64,000 bases of DNA from Chrysomallon squamiferum (taxonomy: Eukaryota; Animalia; Mollusca). Position 1 is the stretch's first letter; each line of letters begins with the position of its first letter. Of the stretch, positions 4,901 through 38,652 are shown one piece after another. The translations under genes were made by a program, and so were the position numbers. The stretch spans positions 22,444,001 to 22,508,000 of the forward strand of contig CM022665.1 in NCBI GenBank assembly GCA_012295275.1, in the 5' to 3' direction. Below the pieces are notes generated by a model. The model was given only the letters and a program-made list of their open reading frames with translations, did not search any database and had not been told where the DNA came from.

Positions 4901-5549
4901 TTTTCTCGACTATTTATTTACAGTATCAAATTACTGTTACCCAATAATTTAAAAACAGAACAAACTGAATTGTTTGTATTGGTGAAAACATGTTTAATAA
5001 TAATTTAAAAAAAAATGAATTAAAAATTTCATGTCATATTATCTGAATCGTCGCTTACTTCGTTCACAAGTAAATGAAATTTGCAATATTAAAACCATTT
5101 CCAGTTAAGTTAGTTCAACATGTCCCCATAACAATATCGAAACTAATTTAAAATATCAGCTAATTACGACTTCCGAAATTTTTATTTAGTCCTGGATCTC
5201 CGTTTACTTTTAAAGTATTGTTACACTTTTTATTTATTTTTTATTTATTTTATATATTTTGTATTCATTTATTATATCTTATTTTATTTTTGTTGTTGTT
5301 TTTGATTTTGTGTAACATATGTAAAATATGACCCCTTTTTCACAGAATATCAAAAATACAGCAAAAGAAAAGGCGAATTATAACGTGAGTTAACGTATAT
5401 TATTATACACATTCCCACGCCAGGGCTGTCGAAATACGTAATTCAGGTTGGTCATTTAAAAAGATCATGCAGCTGTCTAGATATTAAATATTTTAATAAA
5501 TATTTAGAGATTATAGATTCTTTGACAGTCATTTGTTCCAGTTTTTAAA

Positions 5550-5598
<49 letters not shown>

Positions 5599-5944
5599 TA
5601 TATTTAAATCAACAAATATGATGTTCCGCCGGCGCTGTTTTAACAGTATCAAGGTGACCCGATACAGTTGAAGGAAAAGTGGCTTTTAAAATTTCTGACA
5701 ATTCTTACCCAGCACTTAATTGCTTTTAGTAAGCTAGATGACTACAAACCTCGCTTTTCCCAGATTGAAGACGCGGCTGCATAACACGGGGTTGAAGCAG
5801 CAACGCACGGTACATATCAGGTAGGAAGAAGTCATCGTCGTAAGATGGAGCTAAGCCCAACTGCTGTTCCAACAGGCGGGTTGCTTCGTCCCAAATGCCG
5901 TGTGACGGCTGGCGAAGATACATCACTCGAATAGGATTCGACAT
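1982..5944 (-). CDS. Small heat-shock protein (HSP20/alpha-crystallin family, l(2)efl/CRYAB-like), 3 exons, 181 aa
   Basis: Exons (minus strand) 5944-5750 ([12 protein letters not shown]...QSGKSE), 2792-2616 ([25 protein letters not shown]...[26 protein letters not shown]) and 2155-1982 ([23 protein letters not shown]...AIPIT...EEEK*). Both introns are GT-AG, phase 0. Has the alpha-crystallin motifs DVxHFxPxEI, HEERxDEHGYIxREFxRxYxLP, SSLSxDGVLTI and a C-terminal IPI motif. Confidence 0.96.
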
Positions 5945-6080
5945 GGCAGCAAAAACAACAACAAAACAAACCAAAACCAAATCAAATCAAATCAAATGAC
6001 AGTAGAGCTGATGAAAAATTCACGTCACTACTTACACACCGCGCTACCTTTATTTCTTGACTCGAAGCCCTAGCTATAAT

Positions 6081-6087
6081 ATTTATA
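6081..6087 (-). promoter_or_regulatory. TATA box of the sHSP gene
   Basis: Reads TATAAAT on the minus strand, ~140 nt upstream of the ATG and just downstream of the HSE. Confidence 0.7.
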
Positions 6088-6099
6088 ACAGCCGATTAC

Positions 6100-6114
6100 C
6101 TTCGAGAATATTCG
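6100..6114. promoter_or_regulatory. Heat-shock element (HSF site), perfect three-unit nTTCnnGAAnnTTCn
   Basis: cTTCgaGAAtaTTCg, ~13 nt upstream of the TATA box of a heat-shock gene. Confidence 0.85.
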
Positions 6115-6584
6115 TTTCGACCAGACGGTATTACGTTTTCTAATCCAGACACTTCTGGGTTTTTCCAGTGAGCATGCGTGAGTCAGAGATACTGTTTATT
6201 ATAAACTTATATATACCGACAACATCCCGAAACAAAATCTTCTTTTATTCATATTGGGACGCCTTTATCGCAATAAATTGTACACGGGTCTAGTTTCTAA
6301 TGCAGATTACACATAAAATAAATAAATAAATAAATAGTAAGAGAGAAATAAAAAAATGTAATAATATAAATAAAATAAAAAAAGTAATAATATAAATAAA
6401 ATAAAAACGATAAGGAACACCATATTTTATATAAAGAATTTTTGTAAAATAACATGAACTTTTAAAATGAATATTTTATTTCAGAAAATAATAATAATAA
6501 TAATAATAAAGGAAATGAAATTTAATTTGTTCGACAATCAGTTTTATTTGGGTCTCCTAAACGAAATAAGTAATTTAATTAAAA

Positions 6585-6615
<31 letters not shown>

Positions 6616-7511
6616 AATTAAAATTTAAAAACAAAAGTAATTATTTTAAATAACCAACTTTATAGTTAGTGAGAGAAAAACAAGCGTGTGGGGTAGACGC
6701 AGCGGATTCACCCAACCTGAATATGCTGTTACATGCATGTGTCTTTAGATTATCATAAACTACATTCACAAACAAATATGTTGTTACTGACAAGGTAGTC
6801 CCCTTAGAAGTTAGATATAATGACTCCTTGATTTTAATTATAATGTTACAGAAAATTTATTTACATAACTCAAAAACGTATCGTAGCTTGTGATTACATA
6901 CTAATGTTTCGGTTTTAAATGTTATTTGAAAAAAAGCACACATATATACATATATATTTAACCTATTATAAGCTCTAGAAATAATAGCAGATAATGTTGA
7001 CAAGCTATTTTCTTATTTGTTTACATTCGACGGGTGTCGTTTAAGAATAGTCTCTTTCAAATCAGTCTCTTTCCACAAACCAAGAAATATCTAGTTTGAA
7101 CGATACTATCATTGCCTGCCAAAAAGAAAATTCAAAACTGGTACATAATAGACCTATTAAGTTATTTTTATTTCTCTAGTACCTCACCAGGTATATATAT
7201 CTTTATTTTATAAAGTAATGACAGGAATCCTTATTTGTCAAACAATTACAGTAAAGCATGGGGAAATGTTAATTTACCTTGGTAACCTGTTACCGTAATA
7301 GCCGAAATAAGTGCATCGCTCAGCAGATGTCATAATAATTTTAATAAACATTCATCGTCTGCCGTATCTTTTTTTTACTGTTTGATATAATTTTTAAATT
7401 CAAAGTACAAACAGACTGATAATTGTCTGGTAATATATTCAGTGCAAAGGTACATTTATTTTATATACTTTATTACCATTTATAACTATCATAAAGTTAT
7501 GAATGAATGAA

Positions 7512-7513
<2 letters not shown>

Positions 7514-7605: not shown

Positions 7606-7609
<4 letters not shown>

Positions 7610-8405: not shown

Positions 8406-8457
<52 letters not shown>

Positions 8458-9146: not shown

Positions 9147-9323
9147 GTGACACTGTCAGTGCTGACATGAGATGAATGGCTGCCATTCTAATTTACTTGA
9201 TGTATTTGTAATATCTCTGGTTTGGAATATCTGAAGAAATCAAGATATTGTGGAGTAAATTATAGACTGACAGTTCTTTGGATCCATTAGTGCAATGAAC
9301 TATAGGAAAATTTGAATGAAAAG
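9147..9323 (+). other. Probable non-coding 5'-UTR exon of the plus-strand locus
   Basis: Strong acceptor (gttcttttttttttag|) and donor (aaag|gtaatt); no long open frame; lies just upstream of the exon at 9752. Confidence 0.5.
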
Positions 9324-9786
9324 GTAATTATATTTTAACACCAGAATTATGTATTTTGATTATTGAAATTTTAGATAAATTTTGTATAGGATTAATCAAA
9401 TAAGAAAAAATACACAGTATAATAATATAAATAAACAAATTCATGAGTATTTAAATATATTTAAAATATTCATTGCATATTTCATTTTCAGTTTTGCAGT
9501 ACCAAAATGCACAAAGATATTTTTTGTCTAATAACCTTTCATTCAAAAAACAAATTTATTGTGAATTTAAATAATAATTAAAATTTAGGTTGCATCAGTT
9601 TTGATAAATCTTCAGAAGAATTATTTAAGTACTGTTGTAATTTATAAAATGAAATTAGCTGTATCATATTTCCTTACTATGCTGTAAATTGTTTTATTGT
9701 TTTTTATTCATAACTAAAAATTAATTATACCTTCTACATTTGTTCTTGCAGGTTAGACAAAGTGTGTTGATAAAAATAATCAGAAT

Positions 9787-12700
9787 ATGAACAATGTACC
9801 CAGCCCGTATCAGTCTTGGCATCCTGGCTCACCAAGAATACTGTCTTCATACACCACATCACCAAAACCTTCAAGAATTCCAAGACACATTTCTCAAGTC
9901 AGTTCAACAGTGAGTATTTTCAACTGTTGGAAAATAATTTCTTCTTTTTCTTACAGTATCTGCACACTTTTTCAGTTAGCAAAGGCACTATAAAACTGTA
10001 TGTTCAGTGATATATAATCAGGGTTTTTTGTTGATTTTTTGTTACTATTTCGTAATGAGATCAATACTTTTCAATGAAGAAGAAGAGGAAGAAAAAAATA
10101 ATATTCCAATGGAATATGTAAACAGTCAGAAACAAATACACTCTCATTTGTTTTTTAAAATGTAATTGCAGTGGAAAATTAATGTGTAAAATTCCCAAGT
10201 GAATCTGTTTATAGGTCAAAAACACAAAATGGACTATTATTTCCACTGTTGTTTTTTTGGGCTGTTAATAAGTGCATTTTGGGTGTTTTTCACACAACTG
10301 AAAAACTAATATCTAAAGGGAAATAATCCAGTCTATCCTTAGGATCATGCTAATTTTTACATATTCATTATCATGAAAATAAATGGTTATTTTAATGTTT
10401 TTGTAAGTTAGAAGTAAATTATTTTTACCATGAATTAATTATTAAAAATTTCCCTTAATTCATAACAATTCAAAGTTATTAGGTTAAAAACTTGGTAGAA
10501 CCAGTGGAAAGATTAATACATAAAAGACATGACTTGTATGGATAAAAGCTGATGCAGTCAAAGACGTTATATTAGTCTTAATCTTTTTTTAACAGTTTAA
10601 TTCTAGTTCCCCAGATTAACACTGATATATTGATCTTTGTCATAAATCTATAATAATAAAGAAACTGATACGAGTAATCTTATTAGTATGAGAAATGATA
10701 ATTTCTATGATAACATAATCTTTAATTTGACAGATTTGACATACTGTCAGATAAGTTTGATTAGGACTGCAATAGAAAGACACTGGACCTTGAATGCACA
10801 GTGGATAAGGTATTAATTTATGACTGGGTATATTCTGCAATCAGATCTCAAAACTAGTTGCTATGTAGAGCTAATTAAACAGGTGTTGGATCTTTTCTCT
10901 AATTATTGTCCAACTCTAATAGTATCTTTGGAAATAATATTTTTAATTACCGTATATACTTGTGTACAAGGCGACCTTATGTATAAGTCGATGTGTATTT
11001 TAAGACCACAAATTGCGTCATTTTAGGTATTACTTGTGTATAAGTTGACTGTAGATTCCAGGCACCGTCACTATTTTTAGACCAGTGTGACAGTTGAAGG
11101 CACATTGTACGCCTACTGTAACTATTTTTACAAAAATAGCATGTATTACACGAGCTATAGCCTAAATCATTTGGTTTGCCATTACGGTTTTTAATTTTTT
11201 TTTCGGAAAAATCATTTTTACATTCATATTTGGTTTTGTTATTTAATTTTTCAAAAATATACGATAAAATTATATTTTTGAAAAGCTGAAAGACCGCGAT
11301 TATTTTAAATGCATCCCGTAGCAAAAATAGTCAAAATGGCGACTCTTCAGCAACAGCTACAAAAGCATTACCTATGTATAAGTCGACCCCCAAAATATTA
11401 CCTTAATATAGTCTCCCAAAAATTCGACTTATACACAAGTATATACGGTAATTTTTTTCACAATTGTGAATAAAAGGATCTAATGTATAAACATCCTCTA
11501 CGGTGCCACAGATTTGGTTTCACATACCACCGTTTTATTTTTCATTTGGTAATTAAATGAGTGTTCCATCCTGATGACTAAAACTGATATAAACAGACCA
11601 TGTTTATTTGTTTTGTTTATTCATTCTGAGCCTACAGGCTTTTGATTTTATAATGTATTACTTTACTACCCTATCAGATAATGTAATAAAATAATTTATA
11701 ATTATGCCTTTAATATAAAAATAAATTAGTATCATTAAACATTTTGAATGTGCATGTATACACACACTTAACTCTAAATTTGTTACTTGAAATTGAAAAA
11801 AGAAAAGAAAAGGAAAAAGAAAAGAAAAAATAATTTTTTGTCTCTTAGAAAGGATAACAAAGAAATGTACTGATGAAAACTGATGGAAACTTATTTCATT
11901 TACATTGCTTAACTCTAGTTTGAACTGTGTTTGTGGGTGTATGTAATGTAATATAATAAAGGAAAATACTTTTTCTCATGATCACATGATATTAAAGTTT
12001 CTTTAAAAAAAACATGTCAGGAACCTTATTTATGCATGTGCAAAGTGCAGAATTATAAATTAAAATACTTTATCTTTAATAGATGGTTCTTCAGACCAGC
12101 TTTAACTAATACTATCAGTTATATAAATGTCTGTTTTTTTTCTTTTTTTTCAAAAATGGTAATTGTATTTCATTGCTGCATATATACACTAAGATGCTTG
12201 TATAGTATTTTCTTTATCTATGTAATTTATGTAAATGATTATTTGTATACAATTATGTACTTGCAAATATATGAATACAATAGAATATGTATAAGAAATA
12301 TAAATAGGATTATTAAAATGCAAACTGCTTGATTTGAATACACAACTGATTTTTGTTTTATTAAAATCTAACTGAACAGCTTTTCCAAGTTATATACATA
12401 TAACTATATAACTATATATATTTTTTTTTATCATAATGATCATGCTTTTGATTTGATCACGGGATTTTGTTTGTTTTTTGTTTGTAAGTCTGTGCTTAGT
12501 AGAATGGCTTAAGGCTGTAGTCACGCTTTGGACAAATAGAGAATCTGGGTCCTCTATGGTTCTGTATAATGTTTGTTTGCAATGTATTATTTTACCACTG
12601 TTTTTTATGCTCTGATTCACAATGTCTTTTGTTTGTTTAATAGGTTTTTTTTGGACAGTGTTTTGTACTTAAATGTTTTAACTGCTGAATAGTAATCTGC

Positions 12701-15700
12701 AAGATTCCATCTGTTTAATAATGCAGATCTATTTAGGTGTCTACCTTGTTCGTGTTCAAACGTGAATTTTACTCTACATTTACAAAATCTTTTTTTTAAA
12801 AATCAAAAAATCTCTTAAAGTCATTTAGTAGAACTGTTTGTTTGTCTAGCTATAAAGGGCCTACTGGCAACGAACTGGAAAACACTTTTTGAATTATAAG
12901 AGCTGATGAAAAAGACAAGTACCTGTGAATGACAATCACTTGTTTATTACAGGCCATCTCTTGTGATATACATTTTGAACTGGTTAGGTGTTATTGTCAG
13001 AAAGATAGGTGCAAGAAGAATTTTAACAGGCCAAAGGACACCATTTATTGATAAAACTTGGTTGGAAAGAGCAGATCAATGCCAGCTGTGACAAATATTT
13101 CTAAGTTGTGTTCTCTGTGTTAATCTATAAGTGCTTGTAATATTTTGAAAATTAACAAACAAAATATTGCTCAAGTTAACAGCATTAAATATATGTGCAC
13201 AAGCAGTATTTTGAAAATTAAGGAACTGAACATAACTTAAATGATATCTTCTTGTGCAGTGTTCTAAAATATGTATTAATTATATGTTTCTCTGCATGGC
13301 TATATTTTCTGTGTTCATTTCCATGTGCATGAATAATACAGAACATTAATGGATTGAACTTTGTATTAGAAAATCAAGGAACTGGACATTATTTATGTTA
13401 TGCCTCTGTTAATCTATAAGTGATTGTATTGTTTTGAACATTAAGGGATAGGACATATCTCAGGTTATATTTGCATAGTCAGAAGAATTTTCTTATTCCA
13501 TTACATCCAATGTCTGATATAAAAAGTTGTTTTTCATGTGTTTCTTACTTTTATTGCTTTAATTTCTACTGATGTTCTGTGTTAAGTTTTGTAACACAAA
13601 GGATTTTCGAATTATTTGTGGGATTTTTATAACTGTATGTTACTTTAATACGGATACAGCATGATTATTTAGCTGTGCTTCATTAACAGATAACAATATT
13701 TAGTAAAATTATTTTTAACATGATGTTTTATTATATGTATTTTATTATACTGTCATGTGTATGCATTTCTGCTGATTGCTTTAGGATTAAATTAATAAAA
13801 TAGCTTTTGATTTTCAACCCTTTTTCTTTAAACTAGCATGGTGAACTGCTTTTGATGTATTGATTTCTAACCTGTTTATTTGGTGATGTGTTCTGAAAAG
13901 TTGATACATTATGTTTAAGACAAAAAATCAGAACTTTGTGATGAATTGAAATAGTAAAACTTTGACACAGTTTGTTATTAAAAACATATGATAATTTAGT
14001 AATTCTTATTTGCTTCAGAAATGCTGTGCCAAAGAAGAAATTCTACACAACTCATGGTTGTTCTGTTTGTTCTTTTCCTTGTCTATGTGTTTGTTTCTTT
14101 TTATTTGATACATAAGACCAACAGTTCACATAAATTAACTGAAAAAGATACAGAAGATTTTAATTTTGTGATTTCTTCATCAAAAAAACATAATACTGGA
14201 ATAATGTGTAATGAACACAAAAATTTTGTTTTTATAAAATGTATGAAATGTGCTACAGAAACTCTTGGTACTGTGTTTCGCCGTTTTGGATATGTTCGTA
14301 ACTTAACATTTGTGGCTCCAATAGGAAACAAGATTTATTTGGGATGGCCTTTTCAAATGACAGAATGTGATTATAGACCTTCAAAGAGGCCTTTCAATAT
14401 CATTATGGAACATTCTATTTATAATAAGACTGTGATGGAAAAACTAATGCCTTCGGATACATCTTTTATAACTATGATCAGAGAACCATACAGTCACTTT
14501 AAATCAGTGTTCTCATACTTTAACTTGAAAACCATTACCAAAATTACTAGTAATGACCCATTTACAGAATATTTACATAATCTTGAAAAGTATGAAACTA
14601 TATACAAAAGCCATGCAGCTTCACCAACAAGATATTGTATTCCTGATAACTTTTCTGTGACGAAAAATCTGTTGTCTCATTGTATTGGGATGCCTTTAGG
14701 TTTCCCTCCTGGAAGAGAAAACATTACTTCTAATGATAGAGCTGTAGAAAAATACATTAAACAAATTGAAAAAGATTTCACTCTTGTTATGATTATGGAA
14801 TATTTCCATGAATCTTTGATTCTTCTTAGACGCCTGTTTTGTTGGTCTTTCAAGGACATTATTTACTGGAATGCAAATGTTGCAAAGTATCCCAAAAAAA
14901 ATGAACAGCCACCTAAAGAAAATGTCAGTATATATCGGAAATGGAGTGCAGTAGATTACAAACTTTATGATCATTTTAATAAAACATTTTGGCGAAAGAT
15001 TCATGAACAGAGTACAGATTTTTTTGATGAGGTTAAAATATTTGACATTGTTCAAGAAAAAGCAATAAAATATTGTACAAAGCCTGCTTCAGAGAAGCTA
15101 GTTTTCAGCAGAACTGCCTGGAATGAGCCATTCGAATTGACTGTTAAAGACTGTGACATGTTAAAACAATATTTACTGAAGCCAATTCAAAAGCGACATG
15201 ATGAAGTAGAACATAATCCTATACCTCCTACAAGGAACCCAACAGATCCATATAAACCTTTGTGTTAAAATTCTTTACTGTTAAAATATACCTTTGACAT
15301 TCTTAGATGCATCAATGTTTAATTATTTATTTTTCAATAATGGAGTTATGATGCTCTAACTTTCAGTCATTAAATGTTATAAATGTTATCAAACAGTATT
15401 AGTCATAATATTATATAGCAAATTATAATATGTAGTTATTACCTTTTAATACTTTATGTATTAATTTATAAATGCAAATAACATATTAAGGATAATATTT
15501 AAGTAATCTCCATTTTAAAATATACAAACATGCATCATGTATATTTTAAAATGGAGATTACTTAAATATTATCCTTAATATGTTATTTGCATTTATAAAT
15601 TAATACATAAAGTATTAAAAGGTAATAACTACATATTATAATTTGCTATATAATATTATAGTGTTTTACAACACATTAATAAATTATATAATATTTTATT

Positions 15701-18700
15701 ATTGTTTATTATTTTTATGAAAAAACATTAAAAAAACATCATAAAATGAACTGTAATGTATACGAATAGTCAGCTTGTTTACAAGAATCAGTGTTTATTT
15801 AATCTTGATGAAGATTTTAATTTATATTCAGTAACATATCTCAACTATATGTGCATGTTGCTATTAGTTGAAATGATTATGTGGTTTCATAAATACAGTC
15901 TATGTTTGTTTAATTGTATTAAAGGCTTTTTATTCTTGAATCAATAATGTAAAGTTAGTAATTCTGATTTATTAAAAATACACAAAGAGCACAAGGTAAT
16001 TAATTACTTTACAGGGCTCCTGAAATAACAAAGCATTAGTTGATGTGGCTTCATTATAATAATTTTGTTTTATCAAAATATCTGAATAACAGTGTATTTC
16101 ATTGAACCCATTTAAAAAAAACAAAAAAACACCAAATTTCGGAGACAAAATTTTATTCCATTTCATTTGATATGAAAATAATGAGGAAAAAAAAAGATAG
16201 AATTATATACTCTTGACACATATGTGGAGCAACAACAGGATAAAATTTAACAATTTATAGTCAACTTAACTTCATTTCTAGGTTACATTAGATCAGAAAA
16301 TTTTGAATTTACTGAGTTGGTCCTGCTACCTAGATAAGCTATATATCAGTGTTTGATTGCTGGTCTGTGGAGAAACGTGTTTGATCAGTTATACTTGGTG
16401 CTCTCCATACAGATTATATATATATACAAAATATAAATAAAAACTTTGTATATACTTTCCTGTTTATAAGAAAATCCATATCAAATATCTTGCTCTTAAG
16501 GAGAAAAAAAACATAACCTATATGTATGACACTGTGTGAATGAAGATTAAACATGTGTTGAGTGTATCATTAATTAATAAAACATTTCTACTTCCTTTCC
16601 ACTGACACAAGGACATAATATCTACTTAGCCTTCAGAAGAAAACTCCAAGGTGGGCATGGGCTGGATTATTATTTGTTATATTCTTAGTCTAGCTGCAGT
16701 AATATGTGTCTGTGACTAAAACTGGTTAAGACATTCAGTCAGATTAAAACCATTCATATTCAGTAATCACAATTTACAACTAGGTGAGAAAAAACCTATA
16801 ACCCTTATACAGCAACCAAACACTTGGCCAGAAAACCTGATATCTTGGTCATCTACTTAAATATGAATTGACTCATTTGGCAGGTTAACTGTAATAGATT
16901 AAAAAAAACCCTAAACATAATTTTGAAGTGGCAATAAAATGTAATAAAAAATATAGAAGTGAAACAAACATTTTTCACCAGAACAAGGAAATGCTAACTT
17001 ACTGATATTGATTAAGGTATTTGAAACTAATATTTTAATAACTGTTTTGAATGAGTATTTTAACCACAGTATACTACTGTGATCAGTATTTTGTTGACTA
17101 AAAATATTTATTGAATTCATATGTACAACTTAAAAACATTGTATACACTTTTACCTTTAATAAAATCTCACTTATATTGCTTTCACACCTGATAAAATTT
17201 TGTTGTTGTTTGTCTCCTCATAAATAAGGCTTACTTTTTGTTCTATTAAAGACATTTAAAAAATACTGTACCAGCTGTTGGCCTTGATGTCATTAATGTA
17301 CATCAAATTAAGAATGTACTAACGTGATCCTTCTTATTTTTAATATTCCAAACTTTCTTCCTTCATACTGTTGGATTTAAAGGAGCAGGTGATTCAGACT
17401 TAGATATCAATTTCTTTTAACTGTTGACAGTGGGATAAAGAAATTACATATTTTATCATTGTTTATGTAACTGAGTTTGACAGGGTAAAAAAGGAACTAA
17501 TTTTTTAGCAAGATTCTACTGTGTGTATGAGATATAGTCAGTGAATTTGCATTCAGTGAAAATGTACTTATTCAGAAGAAGGTTTTCACACATTATAGTT
17601 AGTGTGTTTTTCCTTTGTTCATTCTATCTCGGTTTTTTTTTTCTTCTTCTTCAACAAACTAATGTTTCATACAAGAAATATGCAAACAAAAATGAAACTT
17701 TGATTTTAACTACACAAGTAAGCAGCACTACTGTAAGATCTTGTAAAGAGCAAACTAAATTTGTTTTTATAAAATGTATGAAGTGTGCTACAGAAACTCT
17801 TGGTACTGTGTTTCGCCGTTTTGGAAATGTTCGTAACTTAACATTTGTGGCTCCAATAGGAAACAAAATTTATTTGGGATGGCCTTTTCAAATGACAGAA
17901 TGTGATTATAGACCTTCAAAGAGGCCATTCAATATCATTATGGAACATTCTATTTATAATAAGACTGTGATGGAAAAACTGATGCCTTCGGATACATCTT
18001 ATATAACTATAATCAGAGAACCATTAAGTCATGTCAGATCAGTTTTTATCTATTTTAATTTGAAAAAACATGCCAAAGTGACAGGTAGTGATCCATTTAC
18101 AGAATATTTACATAATCTTGAAAAGTATGAAGCTATATACAAAAGCCATGCAGCTTCACCAACAAGATATTGTATTCCTGACAACTTTTCTTTAACTAAA
18201 AATCTGTTGTCTCATTGTATTGGGATGCCTTTAGGTTTCCCTGCAGGATCATCAAATATTACTTCTGATGAAGCAGCCATAGAAAAATATATTAAACAAA
18301 TTGACAAAGATTTTACACTTGTAATGATAATAGAACATTTTCATGAATCTTTGATTCTTCTTAAGCGTCTGTTGTGTTGGTCCTTCAAGGACATTATTTA
18401 CTGGAATGCAAATATTGCAAATTATGGCCAGAAATTTGACCCACCTTCTAAAGAGAATGAAAAAATATATCTGAAGTGGAGTACAGTGGACTACAAACTC
18501 TATGAATATTTTAATAAAACATTTTGGCAGAAGATTCATGCTCAGAGCTCAGATTTCTTTGATGAGGTTCAGATATTCACAGAAATTCAAGAAAAAACAG
18601 CAATGTTCTGTGCAAATCCTACATCAGAGAAAGTTGTATTCAGTAAAACATTGTGGAGTGAGCAGTTTGATTTTACCAAGAATGAGTGTAGAATATTTAG

Positions 18701-21700
18701 AATAAGCATTTTGCAAAAAATTCAAAAGCAACACGATGAACTGGAAAATTACCCTGTTGCTCCTACAAGAAAACCTGGGGATCCAAATGTACCCTTATGT
18801 TAACAGAACTGATATTTCAAGTGAATTAAATAGATTAAATAAACTGTTATTAGTTATTTTACTGTTTAGATATAATAAAATATAAATCGTAGTCTTAAAG
18901 CATTCAAATAAAACAACATTTTATGAACTTTAAAGAAAAAGAAAACAAAATTTAATTTTTTTATTAATATTGGATTTTTAAAATAATAAAGGTGTCATTT
19001 TATAATATATTTCTGAATGATTGTACATTATCTATTGTTATTAACACATTTCTACAGTGATATGTAGATTGTTAATATTAACCACTTTAATACTTCCTAA
19101 AATGTAATATATTTTTATCACAAAATTTTCTTGACAGCTTTTCATATTATAGTGACATGATAGTTCCATTGTGACATTTGTTAATTAATTTAGGAAAACA
19201 TTTTATTAGATATCTAGAATCTGACATGGGTTAGATCACAGTTTAAATATTAAAACCATGACAGTTCAGCATGGTTTGTGGTCAGATAATTCTAAACTGT
19301 GGTGTGTTAAACAGTGTATTTAACTAGTGAAACAGTTAAAATATAAATTTTAACTGAATTTCAGAGATAGTATTTGTCCACAGGTCTTGTTCACATGGTT
19401 GAAATTCCATTATTTGACATGATGAAAAAATTTATCTTTTTATTCAGACAAGTAATATTTGTCTTACTTTTGTTTCTTGTGTTTTTGTTGTGTGTATTTC
19501 TTGCTTTATGGATGCATTCAAGTTTCTGTTATTCAACTGTAACTCTTCAACCAGAGAAAATATTATTAGATGATTCGAAGGTAACAGTCCATCTTGATTC
19601 TGTTGATGATTCCAATTTTGATCATAGGGATCCATGTGAAAAGGAGAGGCACAATTTTGTGTTCATCAAATGCATGAAATGTGCTACTGAAAGTCTTGGA
19701 ACCATGTTCAGAAAGTTTGGCTATGATCGTAACCTTTCTTTTGTATTGCCAATAAAGAAAAACATCTGGCTTGGCTGGCCTTACCTTTTATCCAGAAATG
19801 ACATCAGACCATCTATTCATAACTACAATATACTCATGGAACATTCAGTTTACAGCAAGTCATTCCTTCATAAGGTCATGCCAGAAAACACTGTTTATAT
19901 CTCAAGCATACGTGAACCATTCCAGCATTTTCTGTCCACCTGTAATTATTTTGATCTCCCTTACAACACAGAGAAGAATTCATTTACTGGCAGAATTAAA
20001 GATTATCTTGAAAATTACAAATATTATGAATCAGTGTACAAAACTGAAGAATCAGCCTCTTTCAGAAAATGGTGTCCTGGAGATGGATTTTCTATTACCC
20101 AGAATGTTCAGTCTCACTGTCTGGGTATGCCTCTTGGATTTCCTCCTGGAAGAAAGGACATTTCTGAGGAAGTGGCTGCCATCGGAGAGTACCTAAAAGA
20201 ACTAGACAAACATTTCATACTGGTTATCATTGTTGAATACTTACATGAATCACTGGTTTTACTGAGGAGACTTATGTGCTGGAGCCTCAAAGACATCATA
20301 TACAATCCTGTAAATAAAGGATCATATGACAAGTCATCATCCAAAACAAAAGAAAACATCAATCTTCATAAAAATATCAGTAAAATAGATTATTTACTTT
20401 ATGATCATTTTAATGCTACATTCTGGGACAAAGTTAAAAATCAGGATGATGATTTCTATGATGAGGTTGCTTTTTTTACTAGAATTATCAGTCAGGTTAC
20501 CTCATTCTGCCATTTTTCTTCTTATAACATTTCCTCCATTGCTTTTCCTCAGTCAAAATGGAGTTCTGCATTTTTTGTTTCTACAGTTGATTGCAAGCTA
20601 CAGCATCAGTATTTACTAATTAATCTGAAAGAAAGATATGACAAAGGTGAAGGGCATTTACATGTTCCCATTGATGAAACTGAAGTGGTTCTGAGACATT
20701 GTTAAAGTATTTTTAAAGTATCTTTAAAATAGACATCAACAGATAGAGAACTTCTAATATTAACTTAAATCACACATTTTATGAAATTAATATTTGTTTT
20801 AAATAAAGTCCAACAAGATCTGTATCTTAGGAAACATTTCCTTAAATTATCACAATCTACTGATCTAACTTCATTTTAAAATTATCAGTGCAAAAACAGT
20901 TTTACCTGTTGGGTATTTTTCATCATTATAGTTTGTATGATTTCTTTAAAAGCATTTCTAAAATCTGTCAAAATTTTTATGAAAAGATGTTTGTTTTATG
21001 AGTCAAATATTAATCTAAGATAATTATCCACAGTTAAAAAAGAAAATAACTTGAGAACCTACACATACTCCCCAATATGTATAAAATGTTTCAAATAAAA
21101 TAAATCTGCTGAATTACTGTTGTAGTTGTTTATAAATCAAAAAATATTGTTATTCAATAGTATCTCTAAATTATTATTCTGCATGATTTTGTTTATCCAT
21201 GATATTAAATTTCATTAAATATAATATTATGACTAGAAGTATTCTTGTAAGATTTAATATAAACAATTTTACCATTGCAATAAATAATGTTTATATTACC
21301 CAAATAAAAAATATGATAAAGTGTATCTTCAGTGGCACAAAGAGAAAGAAAAATATTCTTCAGAGTGATTATTTTGTTTACCACGACCAGTCTTTGCTAA
21401 TAATAAATTACAACAGTAACATTTATTATTTTTATTAATAAATAAAGAAATAATGAAAGAATAAATATATATTTAAGGATCCATTAGTAAATGGCATGTC
21501 TTTTTCTACTAAATTATCATATTTAAGATTGTCTGCCTGTGACATGAAATCTCTATTTGAAGTACATCATGCATGAAAAAGGTTTTAAAACTGGGAGGTC
21601 AGCAGTTTTGCTAATCATCTGTCTTAATTTTTTTTATCTGGTATCTCAGTAGCCTTACTGAGGATAAGTATTTATATGTAACTAGCTGACAACAATGGCA

Positions 21701-21860
21701 CACATATATTTCTATTTATTTTATTTGCACTATGGTAATTTCACTGTAATAAAACAGTCATGTTCATTTTTAAATATCTTTAGATTTTTTAAAAATATTT
21801 ATTTTCATTTTTCTTTTTGGATTAAAACATTTTAATTAAATACAGTTTTAATGTATTCAG

Positions 21861-21896
<36 letters not shown>

Positions 21897-24800
21897 TTCT
21901 TCTAATTTTTCTTCATATTATTGTTGTTTATTTTTATTATTTCTCCTGTTTTCTTTTTATTTAAAATTAATCATTTATTTTCTGCATTTTGAAAACAGGT
22001 GTTTATCACATAAAACTCAACCCTGAATTTTTTATTGACCATGTGTTTCAAGTTGCTACTGAACTTGATTTATAAAGTGCTTTCTTATCAGCTTTAGATT
22101 TAAAAAATGGAGAGGCCACACCAGAATTCTCTGGAAGATCAAAATCCATTGCTTTGTTTTTATCTAACTTTTCCTGATTATAATGCATCACTACAGTTAA
22201 CATGGACAGCACCATGTAGAGAGATCCAGTGAAATGTCCCTCTACATTTTTTGTCGTTTCTTGTTTTCTTTTTCTTCTTTACATTGAAATCAACTGTATT
22301 TTGAAAATTTTATCCAGCATGATGATAATGCCTGCCAATTAATTTCTGAAATCCTGAATCCTTCCCTGATTACAATCAACTTAATCCATTTATTTATTCA
22401 TAACATTAATTTTACCAATGTTTTCCTTTATTTTTGTTTGTTTTTAAAACATGCATTCAAAATAAATTGAAAAAAAATTAAATCATATCTAATAATAAAT
22501 CTGTTAATTATATCTAAGTATAAATATTATTTGTTATAATGTAAGTAATAATAAAGAACAAAATGAAAAGCAGTTTTTAAATTTATTTCATTAACCTTCA
22601 GATATTACTTTGGCAAGATTGTTTTTGTCAACAGCTGTTATAATAAAGAATAATATAATTACTTAATATAAATGTTTGAAACAAAGTAACAATTTCACCA
22701 TTGGTGGTAATGATTTATTATTATTATTATTATTTTATATTAATATTATTATTATTATTTTAAATCCTATATTTTTTCACATGAAAACAGTTTTCTTTAT
22801 TTGTTTTGTATTGCCTTACTGTGTTAGCAGGTTGTCAAGGTTCTGTTGTCTAGTTTTGTTTTGGTTACAGAGTCCAGTAAACAAAATCCATTGACACTTT
22901 TTCCATTGTTATTCTTTTCACTATGTCATGATATAGAAGTTATCAAGCAGTTGTTGATATAAAGTGGAAAATTCATCTTTTGGTTTCTTTCTTTTTAGAC
23001 AAAAAATGTATTTATTTGTGTATTTATTTAGTTAGTAGTAATTGTGGCAGCATTAGGAATATTTTTTTTAAATTACATATTTTCATGTACAAGAACACAA
23101 TACATTTAAAAAAAAAAAATCAACAAACATCCCCTTTCCATCAATATTCTCTTTCATGCTGTATCAGTAGGATTGCACATACCACAGACATATATATTGT
23201 TTTTGTTGTATACTTGTGTGTTGCAGTCAGCAGCTGATATGCTTCAAAAACCAACTGAACTTTTCACACTGAGCTGAAACACATGATGGAATATAATTTC
23301 CTATCAGCATTTCATCATGATGACTGTGAAATAAATCTACAATATCAATTCACAGCTGCTATGATTATTGTTCTGTAAGTGCTGCAGCCATTTTCTTTAC
23401 CTTTTACTTATGTTAATTAAAGAGACAGCCAGGTTGTGCTATATATTGATGTGAGTTAGAAGAAACACTGGTGTTCAGATGGTTTTTATTGATTATGTTA
23501 ATGTTGACAGGTATAGCTGTTTGGTATGCACAGCCAGTTAATGATTGTACTGGTACAAGATAACAGTTACCGTAGTTTGTGTGTTAAATGATGGTTTAAA
23601 AAATTGCAAATAAATAAACTGATTAGAAATAAATAAAATATATAAATAAAAAAGGTGTCAGTGAATACAAACATAAAGCTGTCTTCATATCATTGGATTC
23701 TTTGATTGTCTGTTCCCCACAAAAAGGACAGATGATTGGTATACTGACATGTTTAATTTTTAGTTATTACAAAAGGATATAAAATAGTTACTGTACATTG
23801 TTTGGAAATAAAACTTCCACCATTTGGTCAGAATGACCTAACTGAGTGAGAACTTATGTCCACAGCAACTGCATTTGAATATTTATATGATGTAAATCAT
23901 GGCAAAAATTGCACTTTTAATTTTAATTTTCAGTCGGAAACTACAATGAATGAAGATTCTTGTACATGTGTTTGTGTGATTTTTTATTTTTTACCCTCCA
24001 TTTTTTTTTTTTTTTTTTTTTTTTTCATTTCTGTGCATATATTTCTATATTTTGTATACAGGGATTTTCATGCAGCATGTATGAAATATAAATGTTACTG
24101 AATATTATTTTATATTGTACTGAATGTGATTATATGTCACTATAGAAAATTTATAGTATATTAATCTGTGAAAGCCTGTAAAAATTAATATGGAAATGAA
24201 ACAGTATTTTGTTAGCTTACACACAACTTTAATGATATGCATAAATTATTATTATACTTTATATTTTTTATTATTTTAATTTATTTTGCTATTGTTATTA
24301 TTTTATTTTAATTTTGTTACTATTATTATTTTATTTTAATTTTTGTTACTATTGTTATTATTATTTATTTATGTATTTCATGATGTAAATAAAAAAGTAC
24401 TATAAATAGTAACATAAAATGATATATGTTGAACTGAAATGTGTTTATTTAACAGAACAAATACGGTAAAAATACCTGTAAACATGATTGTTGGTTTTGT
24501 AGTAAATTTTCTACATTTTAAAAAAAAAACCACTACAAGGTTTTGATTAACTGTCTAAATAAACCACATGCACTGTAAAAGTAAAAAGGATTCCAGGGAA
24601 TATATCGATGTAGGTATTGGTTTATAAAAATAGTGTGCACATGTATTTTGCTTGCACATACATGTAGGCCTGTATGAATTTGGACATACATGAATTATTT
24701 ATAGGCAAAGTAAATTTGACAATATTTATCAAATATTTAATAAATAATTGCAAATATGTAATATTTATCAATTTTAAAACAGCAGCAGCTCATGTAGTAT

Positions 24801-26524
24801 CACCAGTAATTTATAATAAGTCGTTGTTAAACATTCATTCATTTGTATGTAATTTATTAATATGTTATATGCTTCAGGGCCAGTCTTCTGTTTATGGTTT
24901 ATTATCATGCACAGTGTTTTTTATTAGTAGGACTTATGGTGTCAATAAATAACATTATTAACATTATTAGTGGGTCATTCATGTACATACTGACTTGCAT
25001 GAAAGTAGATGTTTTGTATGAAAATAATTATTATGGCTGTGGTATCAGTTTAGACACTGGAAACAATATGACTGATCATTACCACCTATAACTAAGAGAA
25101 AATTCAAACAGATATTAATGGCTATTAAGACAGAATATTGGTTGTAACAGTAATGAGCTAAATAAATAAAAATTGGAAAATCCCCTAAAGGACAAAACAG
25201 TTTTCTGGAACATATTGTTATCAGGATTAGATTATTCTGGTCTCTTTTAATTGTTGATAAATTAAATATTTCACAGGGCACAAATAATATTTCTTACCTA
25301 CAAACAAAGAAACAACAAAGAAAAACTATATATAACACTGATATGTAATTGTTTAAAATATATAAATGATAAAAAGAATATTATTTATAATATTAATCAC
25401 TGAATTAATTTTACTGTATGGTGTTTATGCTTCATAGGAAGGAATGCTTTAATCATTAATATAATACTTCTGTTTTCTTGCAGGGAGATGAATCACAAGT
25501 TAAAAAGGCAAAGAAAGAATATTACAACAAAGATGGTGAAACTTATGAAGCAGAAGGTATTAGTTTTGCTGTTTCTTCTCTTCTTCATTCACTTTCAATT
25601 TTATCAACTCCTTCTTGTTGTATCTCACTTTCTGTTTTCATTTCAGTCTTAGTTTCTCTCTGTATCTTTTTTGCTCTCTTAGTGTTTGTCTTCCCATGTA
25701 TTTGTATGTATATGTGTGCATGTTTATATAGACTACTGTATATAAACATTATTATCCCTTAAATTGCTTATTAAAGTTATCCTCTTTATTTAAATATGTC
25801 TCAGTCATCATGAAGCTTGAATTTGAGAAATATCCCATTCTTTTACAAAGAATCATACATCATCATCTTTTTTTTTGAATTTATTTAAATGTTTGTGGGG
25901 TTTTATTTTAGTATGTCTAGTGTGTACAGATCATGGAAATCCGAAATAAGCATGCATATAATTGTAATTGATTCATATTATGAAATGAATTATATTAATT
26001 GTTTTTTAAATATCATCAAAAATGTCAAAGAAATATGCATATGTCACAGTTTATAAATCAGTGAAGCCTTAGATTCCATATCACACATATAAATAATAAA
26101 AAAACATTCATACATATACAACTACCCATCTTGTAGGTCAGCTGAGCACACCACAGTCAGAGTCAAACATGCAGACAGGAGCTCAGAAGTTAGAAGAGAT
26201 TTGGAAAAAACTTGGCTTTTCAGAGAATTCATCTATTGATATCAAGCAGTTTGCAAAATTCTCACAATATGTTGATATTGGTGATGATGAGGTACATGAT
26301 ATGATGGTTTAATAAAATTAAATTCTAATTCTAAAAATTTTAATTCTTTTTCAAAAACTGTTACTGTTAATAAAATAATTTTATTTCTCTACATGCAGTT
26401 ATCAAAAATAATTTATTTCTGTTCCTCTGAAGTCATGAAAATATTAATGGTTATTTTTCATTTCCATGCTTACAAAATAATGATAATTTTATATTTCTTG
26501 ATAGCAGCATTAAGATTAATGATT

Positions 26525-26556
<32 letters not shown>

Positions 26557-29500
26557 AATGATGGTATCTGCAATAATAGAACCATTAATAAAAGAGTCAT
26601 TATTATTTATTTCTGTGCAGAAACTACAACACCTGTTTGACAAACTTGACACAGACCATGATGGACGACTGACCATTAATGATTTCATAGATGGACATCA
26701 GCGCAGCTCAGCACTGAAACGCCCTTCAACTGGTGTAACCCCTTCACCACTCCTTAGTCCTCAACATACTCCTTATGATGGTCAAAGGAAGACACCTAGA
26801 ACCATGGCAATGTCAAAAAAACTCTTTCCATCTCCTAATGCTGAGAGAAACACATCTGTATTGTCAAACAGTCGACTCTCTGGAATTTTCTCCTGCATAG
26901 ATCCTAATGAAACAGGGCAAGGATAAAAAAAATGTTTTATTAATTTAAATCTGATTAAACAACTATAATAATAATAATAATAATAATAATAAGCAGAAGA
27001 AGAAGAACAACAACAACACCAACAACATCAACACATCAAACTATTACATTAAATAAAATCAGAACAAAAAAATAAGGTCAATAACAGCATATACATACAT
27101 ACACATATGTGTATAACTACCTACCTATACAGTAGTATAACGTTAACTTATTTGTTGAAGTATCTTCATCCACCTTTATTAACATTAACATTTATATTTT
27201 GCTGCTATTACTAACATTAGGGACCTTTAAGAATTTGATACTGGATTATGAATGTATAATATAAGTTAATTGTCTAACTGCAACCTAAATTATATTTTAA
27301 TTTATTTGATTTTTTTATAGATATGCAAATGCTGATGATGTTGTTGATCTCTGGGAAACATTAAACATTCCTGACCCACCAACTTTGCTTCAGGTACAAA
27401 TCTGAATAGTGTTTCAACACAAGATTAATCTTTAATTTACATTCTTACTGTTATGCTGAGGTAATATTTTTTTATCTGAACTGGAACCAAGCACTAAGAT
27501 AAGCATGTCTATTATATATTACTAAAAAAGAGAAATGCTTTTTGCTTTATTTTTATAAAACAATTTTCAGTGATTTTTTGATTTGTAATCAATTTTTCAA
27601 TGTTGTGATTTCTATATACTAAAATATATTGGTTTTAATTTAGACTGCTGAAATAAAGATAATGTTCTGTTTTTAACTGCTACATTATCATTATCAATTT
27701 TTCCAGTTTTTTCATTAGCTGCAGATAATTCCAAAGAGTGAAAGTATCTCTCATCATAATTATAATTTTTTCTTTTTTCTTCGTTGTCTTTTTTTTTTAA
27801 CTTAAAGTGTAGTTTGATGGTAAAAAAAGAAATAGCCTAAATATATGCTGTATACTTTTAAGTAATATTTTATTGTGTTTTTACCATCCATTCTTAATTA
27901 ACATTGGATAATAAAAAAAAAAAAAATCAGTTTAAAAATATCTGGGCACTCTTTTTTTCTATAACTATGGCATCATTACATACAACGCAAACCGAATTGC
28001 TCTAGTTTTCAGGAAGGGATAAAATAACAAAATTCAAATATTTTCTAGGAGTTTAGTTTACAGTTACATTTTGTTATTAAAATCGTTGGTCACTTGATCC
28101 AAATAAAAAAATAACTTGTGAGTATAATGGAATTTTTTAGATCATCCATTCGTAACCATGTTTATTAACATGATTATTTTATTTGTTTGTTCTGTTTTTG
28201 TTAAGATTTTTGAAACAGATTTTTAAGGTGTGTATAATGTTTGATTTCAGGACCTCGGAATTAATCCTCATTCTAAGGTTAATCTTGAGGAGCTGACAGG
28301 TTTAATTGACCAGGCAGTGTCTGACTCGGATGTTGACATATTCTGTCAGATTGCACTGGTAATGTGTGAAAACGAAATTCAGTACAGAAGGTAATCAAAC
28401 AGTACAGTGAAATGTTGTATATTATATGCAATTTAAATATACTGAGATTTGAAGTGAGATCCTTACTGATGTATGTTTGGTATGTTTACATCACTGATGG
28501 TACATTAAAAGCCATAGTGTGTGCTATCCTTCATTAAGAAAAATAAATATAAAAAACTGTTAACCGAAAAACATAACAGGACTTTAAAATATCACATGGT
28601 GTTCATGAAAAAATGTGACTGTGCTGCTTCTGAAGACTCTAGCTTTGAATTTTATTAGTGAGTAAATGAAATTTATTAGTAACAGACGATTAACCAACAT
28701 TAATTGTATTTGACAAGGTAATTTGATTCCAAGAATAATCCTATAACAGGGACACTGTAGTTAATGTTCAAAACTTATAATAATATATTTTTTATTTCTT
28801 TAATTATTATTTAATTTTGTATGCATGTTAATGATTTAGGCTAAGATTTATCCTTTGCTTTTTCACTCTGTTTACCAAATTTGAAAATACATCTTTATGT
28901 TATTTGTGACAGGACACTGTTCAACAAAGTCAGACAGGAGAGAGACAAATATCTACTGGACCTGCGTGAGGTCAATGCCAGAAATGCTATCCTAGCCAAG
29001 GAGTTTGACGATCGACATATAGAGATAGAAAAATCAACAGAAGCAAAACTCTTGTATGTACAGTTTTTGAAATTAACAATTAATTAATTTGTCTCAGTGT
29101 TAAAAATGATTTTCACTTTTTATGCTTTTGGATATATATTTTAGCTGTGTTGTGTTTAGCTTTTATCATATCGAAATAACCCTGTTTGATTGCTGTATGA
29201 GATTTCCTAAATTAATTCTTATATAATTTGAAATTGCTAATTTTCAAATATTTTTTGTCCTCCACATTGATATGTTTTAGATTGTTACAAATTGTAATGA
29301 TTTGGGTAATACTATATGCATATTTATAATTAAATTTCTGCTTTTCTTCTTTCTTTTTTTATCTCTTTTATTTTTTAAAGAATTTAATTATATCTATTAC
29401 AAAAATCGTAGGAATGAATTATCAATTTATTAGTATAATATATTAAAACAGTATATATTTTTTCTCAGCATATAAATCCTGTTTTGTTTTGATGTTACTT

Positions 29501-30632
29501 TTATGCTATCAAATATTTTACTTTCACAATTTTGCTTCAGTGAAATTATTTGTGAAATAAAGAAAACATATTTGTAAGTAACAAGACTGGGTTGGATGTT
29601 TTTACTGGTTCCAGGGTTTATAACAATTTTTGTATCTTTTATTTTATTCTTTTCATTTTTTTCATAAATAATATCCAATTTATCATTTCATTTTATTTTG
29701 TTTTATTTCTTTTTTGTTTTGTTTTAGGTACATTAAATGGACGAAAAAGGTTATTTACATGTATATGTATATATATACATATATATTATTATTTTTTTTT
29801 ACAAATGCTTTTCCTTTTGAAATGCTCATGCTAGTGTAGTTGCTGAATTTGCGGCACATGCTGTCAAATACTATTTTTAATAAAACCATTTATTATTATA
29901 TCAGCTATCTTGGGATTGTAGTTTTCTTTGTCTGTGCATGTATTTGAAAAAGTTATTAAATGTGTTTATTTTCTTTAAGGATGCATTTATCATGAATAAA
30001 TATTTGATCATTTAACTATTTGTTAGTGAAATATAATGACTAAATTTAGTAAAAAAATATTCATGACAGATATTTTTCAGTTATATTTAAGGGGAAATAA
30101 TTTGGTTTGGATATCTATATAGCTATAGCAGTATGAATGTTTTATGAATAAAAATTCCTGCAAAGTCAGATAAAGGGTGTAATTAGATTTGATGCATGTT
30201 TACTAAATTTAGATGGAATTTAGTAAATTAACTTGCCTATATTAATGGACATATATTCATATATTTAGTAGATAATAACTAATATAAATTATACTGGAAT
30301 AATAAAAACTTAAACATTTAATTTTATTTAGTACTTGGCAGTTATTTCAACAGTTTATTAATATTTTGTTAATAACAACAACAAAAATTAGTAACTGAAC
30401 AATAACAATATGGTTTCAAATAATTAGTTTCAGAATTGTTAATTAGGAGTGAAAGCTCGAGCTTTAGTTTTAAAAATGTAGTTTATTCTATATTTTTCCT
30501 CTGCTTGATTTAATAAAATAATTGCATGTGTGGTATGCAAGAGCCCTATTACCAGAATATGTTAAACTTAAGCTGCATGTAAATGCAGATAATGAATAAT
30601 TTTGATATGTGTAGTTTAATGTTGGATTGTGA

Positions 30633-30701
<69 letters not shown>

Positions 30702-30783
30702 ATTATTTCAGGTACAAATAATAATCATTTATATTAAGAATATATTACAGAGTCATTAAAAATATATGATGAGACGCATAAAT

Positions 30784-30831
<48 letters not shown>

Positions 30832-31164
30832 ACACATACATAAACAACCGAATACACCTGCATAATAATAGTACTAATAATAGTAACAGATGCATACTTA
30901 TAAACAAATATTTAAACCACTCTAGTTTCACAGTAATGTATTAAATGTTAGCCATGCTAAAATATAAATACCAGATATATATTTAATTATTTACATGGAT
31001 AACTTATCATGTGTTAATCACTGCACATAGATTTATTTTTGTATAAGGAAAATGATATTACAGCTCCTAATATATTTTTCATTATTGCTCTTAATTGTAT
31101 AGCTTTGTTGCACATGGATTAACTTTAAATAGAATTCCAACATTTAATTTAAACATTATCTGAA

Positions 31165-31205
<41 letters not shown>

Positions 31206-37200: not shown

Positions 37201-38621
37201 TATTTGGCATTCTTGCACTGGAAACAATTTTATATGTGAAAATATTTGAAATGGTTGAAACCAAAAACTTTTAATACAAATTATTACTTCAACTTTTCTT
37301 TGGAATAGATAATTCACTCTATCTATTAGAAATTTTATTTTTATGGTTATGAACAAAAATATGTTGTTTTCAGGGTTTTGATTCATTGAGAGGGAAATTA
37401 CGTGATGATTTCTTGACTCTGCTACAAGAGAAGACAGAAAGTGTCATTGCCATTCACCAGACCAACATGTGTAAAGAAATGGAAGCTCTACAGATAAAGT
37501 TAGAAAACGAATATTCAGCCAAACATATGGCTTTACAAAAACAACAAGAAGATTTGGAAATGGAGAGGATGGTCATGTTGAAACAGTTGAAGAATGATAG
37601 AGACTGTCTTGACGCCCAGAGGGTAACCATGGTGAAACAACAGCATGTTGACAACCATCTTGAAATGGAAAGAGCTGCCATGTTAGAGAGGGAAAAAGAA
37701 GAAAGCTGGAATAAAGAAAGATTAGTTGTAGAACAGAATCACCGGGATGAAATTGTAAAATTGAAAGAAGAACTGGGTAGGAGTTTCAGAACATTAATTA
37801 GTTTTGCTTGTGGGCAGAAAAGCTAAAGACGAGTTCCTGATTTACATTTTCTTTTCATAATAATGTGTAGTTCCACATTCTGAAGTTAACTAATCAAAAT
37901 TCTTCTCACTTGCAGTTTAAGACTTCTTCAAGTTAACTAAACTTTTGTTTATGACATATCTGCAGTATTCACCAATTATTATAAATACTCTTCCATCCTT
38001 GAATTTTATCACAAAAAACACAAAAGACTATAATAATTTAAAATGACTACATTAAAATCTACTTCTACATATTTTTTCCTGTTCCAGAACAAAATATAAA
38101 ATGATGCAAAAATTGATTTAGAATTTGTATACGTATGTGTATATAACCAGTATATATTTGTGTGTGTATGTGTATTTTTTATGTTAAACTGAAGGTGATG
38201 CTTTTGAGAAAGAGTGTACAGCACTGATGCAGAGGTATGAAGATCAGATAATAGAATTAAGAAAACATCTTGGAGATTTGAGGGTTTGTGTTGATGCTGA
38301 GAGAACAAGACATAATGAACAGCTAGAGAAGCAGCAAGAACTCACAGAACAGATAAACAAATCTACAATGGTAATCTTAAATATTTTGCCAAAATATTTA
38401 TAATTTCTTTCTTTTTATCTCAGTGTCTTTTACATTTTGCCATGAAGCCAGAGAGAGAGAGAATGAAACTGGATTTTTTTTCAATAGTTGCTTTTTATTA
38501 TTAGCAGGGTGAGATATGGACCAAAGATACTCAGTAATATTTAGCTTTCAAAGTTTTCATTTTAAGCAGAATATCTTGGAGTAAAAGCCATTTTCTTTTC
38601 CACAGACCAAATATTGAGGGG

Positions 38622-38652
<31 letters not shown>

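Follow-up and report, generated by a model that had tools for sequence, protein, structure and literature searches.

Three sulfotransferase genes probably nested within one ninein intron of the snail Chrysomallon squamiferum, behind apparently decayed N-terminal ninein exons

We have analyzed a 64,000-nt stretch of AT-rich animal DNA from the snail Chrysomallon squamiferum (assembly GCA_012295275.1, contig CM022665.1, positions 22,444,001 to 22,508,000; referred to as the window, in whose positions all coordinates are given). Three genes of the GAL3ST sulfotransferase family, designated ST1, ST2 and ST3, lie on the + strand between ninein exons 9752-9909 and 25484-25556, in what is likely one ninein intron. 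We give a slightly better than even chance to a reading in which three intact genes have been nested on the same strand in this single intron since an early mollusc and are read from their own start sites. The ninein transcript would splice through two decayed former coding exons, then jump the cluster, and would encode a ninein without the first EF-hand pair.

Among named proteins, those of Gigantopelta aegis come closest (66% for ST1, 72% for one ninein exon). In a translated search of the window, Gigantopelta ninein maps as 24 ordered segments from 9853 to 46636 (E<1e-3), as expected of a collinear orthologue. Amino acids (aa) 123-140 of this protein correspond to 9853-9906 and aa 142-166 to 25484-25558. 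The trio therefore separates exons whose products adjoin in the orthologue, and the nested genes fall wholly between two host exons as judged by contiguity in Gigantopelta ninein X1/X2. A previous sequence-only reading of this DNA had described three intact GAL3ST-like open reading frames (ORFs) on the same strand in this gap, behind a GTGAGT donor that joins in phase 0 to the exon at 25484. The coordinates of the ORFs were correct, and both the donor at 9910 and the phase of the 9909/25484 join were confirmed in the sequence; the gap to the next ninein exon is 15,574 nt.

All three ORFs belong to the family by a Pfam search. Matches to PF06990 have E values of 1e-48 (ST1), 1e-47 (ST2) and 4e-37 (ST3) and scores of 167, 163 and 128 bits against a curated cut-off of 27, with most of the model covered. 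A single hydrophobic segment lies at the N-terminus of each protein (hydropathy 2.6-3.5 at aa 11-38 and no more than 1.5 in the rest), as in a protein with one membrane anchor. Nonsynonymous and synonymous divergence between ST1 and ST2 (dN 0.21, dS 0.47) are those of intact ORFs under constraint. Enzymes of the GAL3ST family are located in the Golgi, use 3′-phosphoadenosine 5′-phosphosulfate and are characterized by sulfate transfer to the 3-OH of galactose. The snail proteins resemble vertebrate GAL3ST1-4 (PF06990) in the Pfam match above cut-off, the N-terminal membrane anchor and the luminal catalytic region, the last two being predicted here; they differ in falling into a mollusc clade and are sulfotransferases by prediction from sequence. 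We found no solved GAL3ST relative by sequence and, in the literature, no paper on GAL3ST gene structure. In a quick version of the sulfotransferase tree, ST1 and ST2 are sisters (support 93) inside a clade of close relatives (100), while ST3 clusters with proteins of Gigantopelta, Patella and Lottia (97) and is an older paralogue, common to limpets. Comparison of ST1 with ST2 shows DNA blocks of 91-99% identity among blocks of 52-87%, and the two genes have eight identical runs of 30-59 nt in common. Such a mosaic of alike and divergent blocks suggests gene conversion. The high-identity blocks (14200-14660 and 17740-18200) include the motif-bearing catalytic region, with divergent blocks on either side.

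The association of the two gene types extends to other molluscs, among them unionid mussels, limpets and a whelk. Consecutive tags for ninein / sulfotransferase are found in Sinanodonta (036196 / 036197-8), Potamilus (017499 / 017500) and Nucella (051490 / 051491 and 024414 / 024413), and consecutive tags or accessions in Patella caerulea (010651 / 010652-3) and Patella vulgata (XP_050404292 / 293); in Gigantopelta, XP_041353347-9 and XP_041353353-4 have three accessions between them. Both genes are on the same scaffold, as judged by equal length, in Mizuhopecten (128 kb) and Saccostrea cucullata (538 kb), as are three sulfotransferases and an intact ninein exon 1 on a 967-kb contig; in three Haliotis species, Pinctada, Ostrea, Mya and Dreissena they have the same chromosome only. 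Strand and order are fixed by two cases. A Solemya model fuses the N-terminus of ninein to the C-terminus of a sulfotransferase, probably through a mistaken prediction across the intron. Contig L008, with ninein exons most similar to those of Mya and Dreissena, carries an intact 415-aa sulfotransferase at 3032 followed by an exon of the 25484 type at 6865 on the same strand; it was the only one of 80 metagenome loci searched to hold ninein exons, most of the loci being short or distant. From these two cases we strongly infer that nesting in this intron occurs in both gastropods and bivalves, and it was likely inherited from an early mollusc. Three points speak for caution: adjacent tags identify neighbours, not nesting; the identifiers in Haliotis and Pinctada are not consecutive; and the ninein/sulfotransferase pair of Babylonia is on different chromosomes. 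Extra copies are present elsewhere in Gigantopelta, Sinanodonta and Dreissena. The layout accounts for mollusc annotations in which ninein models are split or chimeric. Literature searches on ninein with sulfotransferase, with mollusc or gastropod, or with N-terminal loss revealed no report of the locus among titles and abstract starts. Nucella has two ninein and sulfotransferase loci (P0177/P0050 and P0194/P0119), either because the pair was duplicated together or because it was assembled twice.

Contigs of three RNA runs (X1, X2 and X3) and of a likely DNA run (X5) were compared with window positions 6950-12300 only. All three RNA runs contain a GT..AG joint from 9323 to 9752, a junction that had been predicted, and X2 and X3 contain another from 7190 to 9147; X5 has no GT..AG joints. 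The exon 9147-9323, previously put forward as a leader, is therefore a real spliced exon, although not the first one, since the exon ending at 7190 precedes it in X2 and X3. One X1 contig starts at 9146, one base before exon 9147, perhaps because of a second upstream exon; near 7140 there is a GT that resembles a donor. The sulfotransferase stretch is represented with a share of 0.22 in run X1 and with small shares in X2 (0.13), X3 (0.11) and a further run, X4 (0.06).

At the donor of exon 9752-9909, two contigs, X1 record 2 (1641 nt) and X3 record 14, match the window as far as 9910 and then extend by a further 1304 and 25 letters, respectively. An alignment that stops at exactly 9910 requires the next letters to be G and then not T, which fits acceptor 25484, whereas acceptors 14019, 17557 and 19365 would stop the alignment at 9909 and 19384 would stop it at 9911. 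Of the seven acceptors tried, the observed stop is predicted by 25484 and by a weak AG at 17484 alone. The proposed junction between 9909 and 25484 is thus favoured by a one-letter match in two runs, the junction itself not being seen; together with contiguity in Gigantopelta, this match makes it likely that the host transcript joins the two exons across the cluster. It must be weighed against this that 77 of the 713 AGs in the intron give the same stop and that the 1305-nt continuation is also about the length from 17557 to the likely ST2 cleavage site. The latter agreement with the ST2 exon would suit a split gene, in which the exons upstream are now used chiefly for a sulfotransferase or some unseen exon, and ninein arises solely from an internal start near 21.5 kb. 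Gigantopelta, Haliotis, Pecten and Mya have annotated short isoforms that begin at the 25484-type exon, all five Patella models are of this form, and L008 has a candidate internal first exon after its sulfotransferase. We nevertheless consider a split gene improbable: acceptors 14019 and 17557 are at odds with the G that follows 9909 in two runs, in-frame conservation of the 3′ part of exon 9752-9909 equals that of coding exons while the 5′ part has decayed, and the identical runs common to ST1 and ST2 would tend to break a contig through ST2.

The first coding exons of ninein appear to have decayed at this locus. A plain tblastn search of the window with aa 1-122 of Gigantopelta ninein gave no ordinary match. 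Exon 9147-9323 has stops in all three frames, and its successive pieces resemble the Gigantopelta N-terminus. All 56 residues encoded by exon 1 were aligned, allowing for frameshifts, to either strand of the window at each possible end position (127,402 positions). The best end was 9323, the donor seen in RNA, which ranked first of 127,402 with both Gigantopelta (score 47, next 43) and P0228, a protein with the orthologous exon intact (50, next 43). Identities over aa 1-56 are 23/56 with Gigantopelta and 22/56 with P0228, and 1 of 1000 shuffles reached the local score of the relic. Other alignments, made with differing gap penalties, were unfavourable. The relic was not detected with a Haliotis query, a 12-sequence profile gave it 24 versus a tile mean of 23 (31/1500 shuffles), not above background tiles, and under a strict frameshift penalty it scored 38 versus a tile maximum of 39. 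The relic is thus resolved by the two closest orthologues only, and because the Haliotis query and the broad profile fail, its identification rests on these two and on the coincidence of the end position with donor 9323. Both nonetheless point strongly to exon 9147-9323 as what is left of ninein's ancestral first coding exon. For the middle exon of the ancestor (aa 57-86), which is skipped, no significant relic was detected (93/1000 and 523/1500 shuffles).

Exon 9752-9909 aligns over aa 91-140 with two frameshifts, scoring 91 versus a shuffle maximum of 60, mostly from its intact 3′ part, and it has an in-frame stop at 9754. The 5′ half alone is weak (103/1000 shuffles reach its score, and 958/127,402 positions are as high), whereas the last 18 codons (9853-9906) have 13/18 identities, above the median of 10.5 of 74 coding blocks. 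Because of this conservation, translation may start at ATG 9787, behind six short upstream ORFs; exon 9147-9323 holds six upstream ATGs.

We also considered that the broken exons are an assembly artefact or belong to a dead duplicate, and that an intact full-length ninein is made, given that close relatives keep the exon intact. This seems to us very improbable. Over both relic exons, RNA runs X1-X3 and X5 show no differing letter or gap, so the stops and frameshifts are not assembly errors (X5 may be the window's own source). The relic exons are spliced in RNA, there is no intact N-terminal ninein exon in the window, and the CpG-rich region 1-7500 is unlike the inside of a ninein gene. An intact copy of the N-terminal exons may exist elsewhere in the genome, which would weaken the case for loss.

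The intact orthologous exon of P0228 matches EF-hand_7 and the EF-hand pairs of PDB 2PMY and 6PSD, and aa 2-255 of Gigantopelta ninein are collinear with aa 7-256 of primate ninein. Of the N-terminal EF-hand pair, this locus retains only the relic with its stops and frameshifts. As described in PMC7655957, human NIN1-87 binds the helix of LIC1, a light intermediate chain (LIC) of dynein, and NIN180-356 does not; ninein 1-693 binds LIC in the account of PMC6336354, where the binding part is not mapped. The locus is therefore predicted to encode a ninein without the putative LIC-binding module, and this snail ninein may have lost LIC binding. Human ninein and ninein-like, as presented in PMC7655957, have a second EF-hand region and a coiled coil, which are also present here and collinear with Gigantopelta ninein, whereas the first EF-hand pair, the sole LIC1-binding part in that account, would here have decayed into 5′ untranslated region (UTR). 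Drosophila Bsg25D differs in that, according to PMC5004617, it keeps the N-terminal similarity though without some EF-hand residues. The locus would then be a natural deletion experiment, in which exons for the LIC-binding EF-hand pair have turned into 5′ UTR while close relatives keep them. If this is true and there is no intact copy, the dynein-activating role of ninein would be dispensable or rerouted in this lineage and separable from microtubule anchoring. None of the five Patella ninein models (P0159, P0315-P0318) has the N-terminal EF-hand pair, which may reflect an independent loss or an annotation that was split.

How the sulfotransferases are transcribed is a separate question. The sequence-only reading had proposed that a single promoter and non-coding leader, for example exon 9147-9323, can be spliced to any sulfotransferase or to ninein. 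The same-strand nesting and the 9323 to 9752 splice stand, but a splice to a sulfotransferase was not seen from the donor side. RNA contigs run unbroken through donors 7190 (2/2 covering it), 9323 (3/3) and 9909 (2/2 reaching it), which is weak evidence against frequent branching, as contigs drop rare forms. Within 9910-12300 no GT..AG joint was seen in the RNA contigs, which does not prove absence. The choice of 9147-9323 is doubtful as well, because this exon is coding in close relatives and a splice from it would place the ninein start codon ahead of the sulfotransferase. The sulfotransferases are somewhat more likely than not to be read from their own start sites, and the AG preceding each ATG would then simply close a 5′ UTR intron of the usual kind.

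The alternative, in which a promoter at 7.1 kb feeds the sulfotransferases as alternative terminal exons, we regard as possible but less likely, and a shared leader as unproven; if a leader is shared, the most likely donor is that of the ATG-free exon ending at 7190. The base composition agrees with such sharing. The observed/expected (o/e) ratio of CpG is close to 1.1 in 1-7500 and drops to 0.09-0.22 in the ninein body up to about 47 kb, one repeat excepted. This continuous CpG-poor domain is consistent with one methylated gene body; intragenic methylation is described for oyster in PMC3840415. Several features of the cluster tell against separate start sites. CpG is depleted before ST1, ST2 and ST3 (o/e 0.19, 0.11 and 0.14) with no CpG patch, the window analysis found no private promoter or 5′ exon for any sulfotransferase, and the distance from the ST2 AATAAA to the ST3 acceptor is only about 520 nt, with no consensus AG|GT donor between them, which speaks for a promoter upstream. 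That the layout has persisted so long suggests a degree of constraint, and promoter sharing of this type has already been described. On the other hand, no joint or loose end to a sulfotransferase is present among those listed, although the runs with unbroken contigs at the three donors hold sulfotransferase words. Splices from 9909 to any of the four acceptors give ORFs of 41-70 aa that are dead ends and not fusions, and translation would be hindered by the six ATGs lying upstream in 9147-9323. We rejected a fusion protein of ninein and a sulfotransferase made from 9909, as the four joins tested stop early and no ninein match carried a sulfotransferase motif. A shared leader would leave the findings on the decayed N-terminus unchanged.

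Scored with a matrix built from 23 ninein acceptors (true sites have a leave-one-out median of 1.4), the acceptors proposed for ST1, ST2 and ST3 reach 3.6, 0.5 and 1.3 and rank 22, 79 and 51 of 713 intron AGs. The acceptor-like AGs are where they had been described, and they score within the range of true ninein acceptors, a point in favour of a shared leader; they are plausible, not diagnostic. The AATAAA noted downstream of each ORF is also correctly placed, but the intron contains 44 copies, and at 2.8 hexamers per kb one downstream of each sulfotransferase is expected by chance.

With an internal start located downstream of the cluster, a short ninein could avoid the nested poly(A) sites, and relatives appear to have such a start; a route bypassing the cluster is likely in molluscs. 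In Gigantopelta, Haliotis, Pecten and Mya, annotated isoforms have an alternative short exon just before the 25484-type exon. In L008, a candidate internal first exon (5561-5638; 26 codons, phase 0, lysine-rich) lies in a CpG-richer patch between the sulfotransferase and the next ninein exon. With the start of the Mya short isoform as query, this exon was the best of 16,140 for a 10-residue version and was missed by a 25-residue version. The N-termini of short isoforms of four relatives gave no clear match in the window intron. A weak candidate is 21565-21734, whose ATG stands where Gigantopelta isoform X3 requires it; an M-K-K-V start at 21573 resembles the Haliotis short isoform (26/2000 shuffles, the pattern being chosen after looking).

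Nesting of this kind is apparently an ancient example of an already known arrangement. Same-strand nesting had been taken to be unusual, a weak premise, the two orientations of human and mouse nested genes being broadly similar in frequency as reported in PMC11694760. Host/nested pairs described there also have whole genes in a long 5′ host intron, commonly in the same orientation, and nested poly(A) sites can alter host isoforms; the snail locus differs in its tandem trio and in a layout apparently kept across gastropods and bivalves. CPNE1/RBM12, described with more than 20 human promoter-sharing pairs in PMC2568002, likewise joins unrelated same-strand genes with the nested coding sequence in one large exon. 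Caenorhabditis elegans unc-17/cha-1 (PMC3875643), with a common 5′ exon, a nested gene in a host intron and two unrelated proteins, corresponds exactly to the arrangement first proposed here; its products belong to one pathway, and its nested gene is in intron 1. The snail locus has the same strand and a nested coding exon behind an acceptor in common with such pairs. It differs in that CPNE1/RBM12 and unc-17/cha-1 have only untranslated exons in common, known by cDNA for CPNE1/RBM12 in PMC2568002, whereas here the cluster follows three ancestrally coding exons, of which 9752-9909 is probably still partly coding and those upstream are coding in relatives. From the donor side, the RNA contigs show no common 5′ exon spliced to a sulfotransferase. 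We consider it unlikely that since early molluscs one promoter has fed both a truncated ninein, with the decayed exons as spliced leader, and three predicted Golgi enzymes, chosen by splice or poly(A) site. The long persistence makes the locus well suited to asking whether a shared promoter maintains nesting on the same strand or the genes are simply trapped. To our knowledge, no functional link exists between ninein and glycan sulfation.

Table 1. Features of the ninein-sulfotransferase locus (window positions)
Feature	Position	Strand	Evidence or remark
CpG-retaining region	5501..7500	.	CpG o/e 1.19; putative promoter role
Most upstream ninein exon seen, non-coding, ATG-free	7106..7190	+	GT..AG joint 7190 to 9147 in X2, X3
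Spliced exon, probable relic of ancestral first coding exon (EF-hand), now 5′ UTR	9147..9323	+	RNA X1-X3; frameshift alignment
Ninein exon, 5′ half decayed, 3′ part conserved in frame	9752..9909	+	Splicing in X1-X3; homology
High-copy repeat in intron	10940..11460	.	Depth in X5
ST1, GAL3ST-family ORF, 415 aa	14021..15268	+	Candidate acceptor before 14019; AATAAA 15678
ST2, GAL3ST-family ORF, 413 aa	17562..18803	+	Candidate acceptor before 17557; AATAAA 18838
ST3, GAL3ST-family ORF, 436 aa	19395..20705	+	Candidate acceptors before 19365, 19384; AATAAA 20802
Candidate internal first exon, short ninein isoform	21565..21734	+	ATG directly before donor at 21734
Ninein exon after sulfotransferase intron	25484..25556	+	80% identity to Gigantopelta aa 142-166; acceptor rank in top three
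Remaining ninein exons (second EF-hand region and coiled coil)	26137..46640	+	22 further segments (E<1e-3), in Gigantopelta order

Other features of the window are as follows. The ninein exon from 26621 has an apparent GC donor at 26917-26918 (a GC-AG intron), as suggested by homology and phase. The large ninein exon 39298-40026 contains an internally repeated coiled-coil unit that aligns with Gigantopelta in three offset registers and looks longer here. The CpG-rich repeat at 10940-11460 reaches a depth of up to 78,000 versus about 60 in X5 (about 1000-fold) and is abundant in RNA contigs. An HSP20 small heat-shock gene (1995-5945, minus strand) lies head-to-head with ninein, about 1.2 kb from exon 7106-7190, with the CpG-retaining region at 5501-7500, which is likely a promoter zone common to both genes. 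Near-identical open stretches at 50271-50759 and 57631-58035, the first without a Pfam match, represent a local duplication, and a reverse transcriptase fragment is present on the minus strand at 62401-62823.

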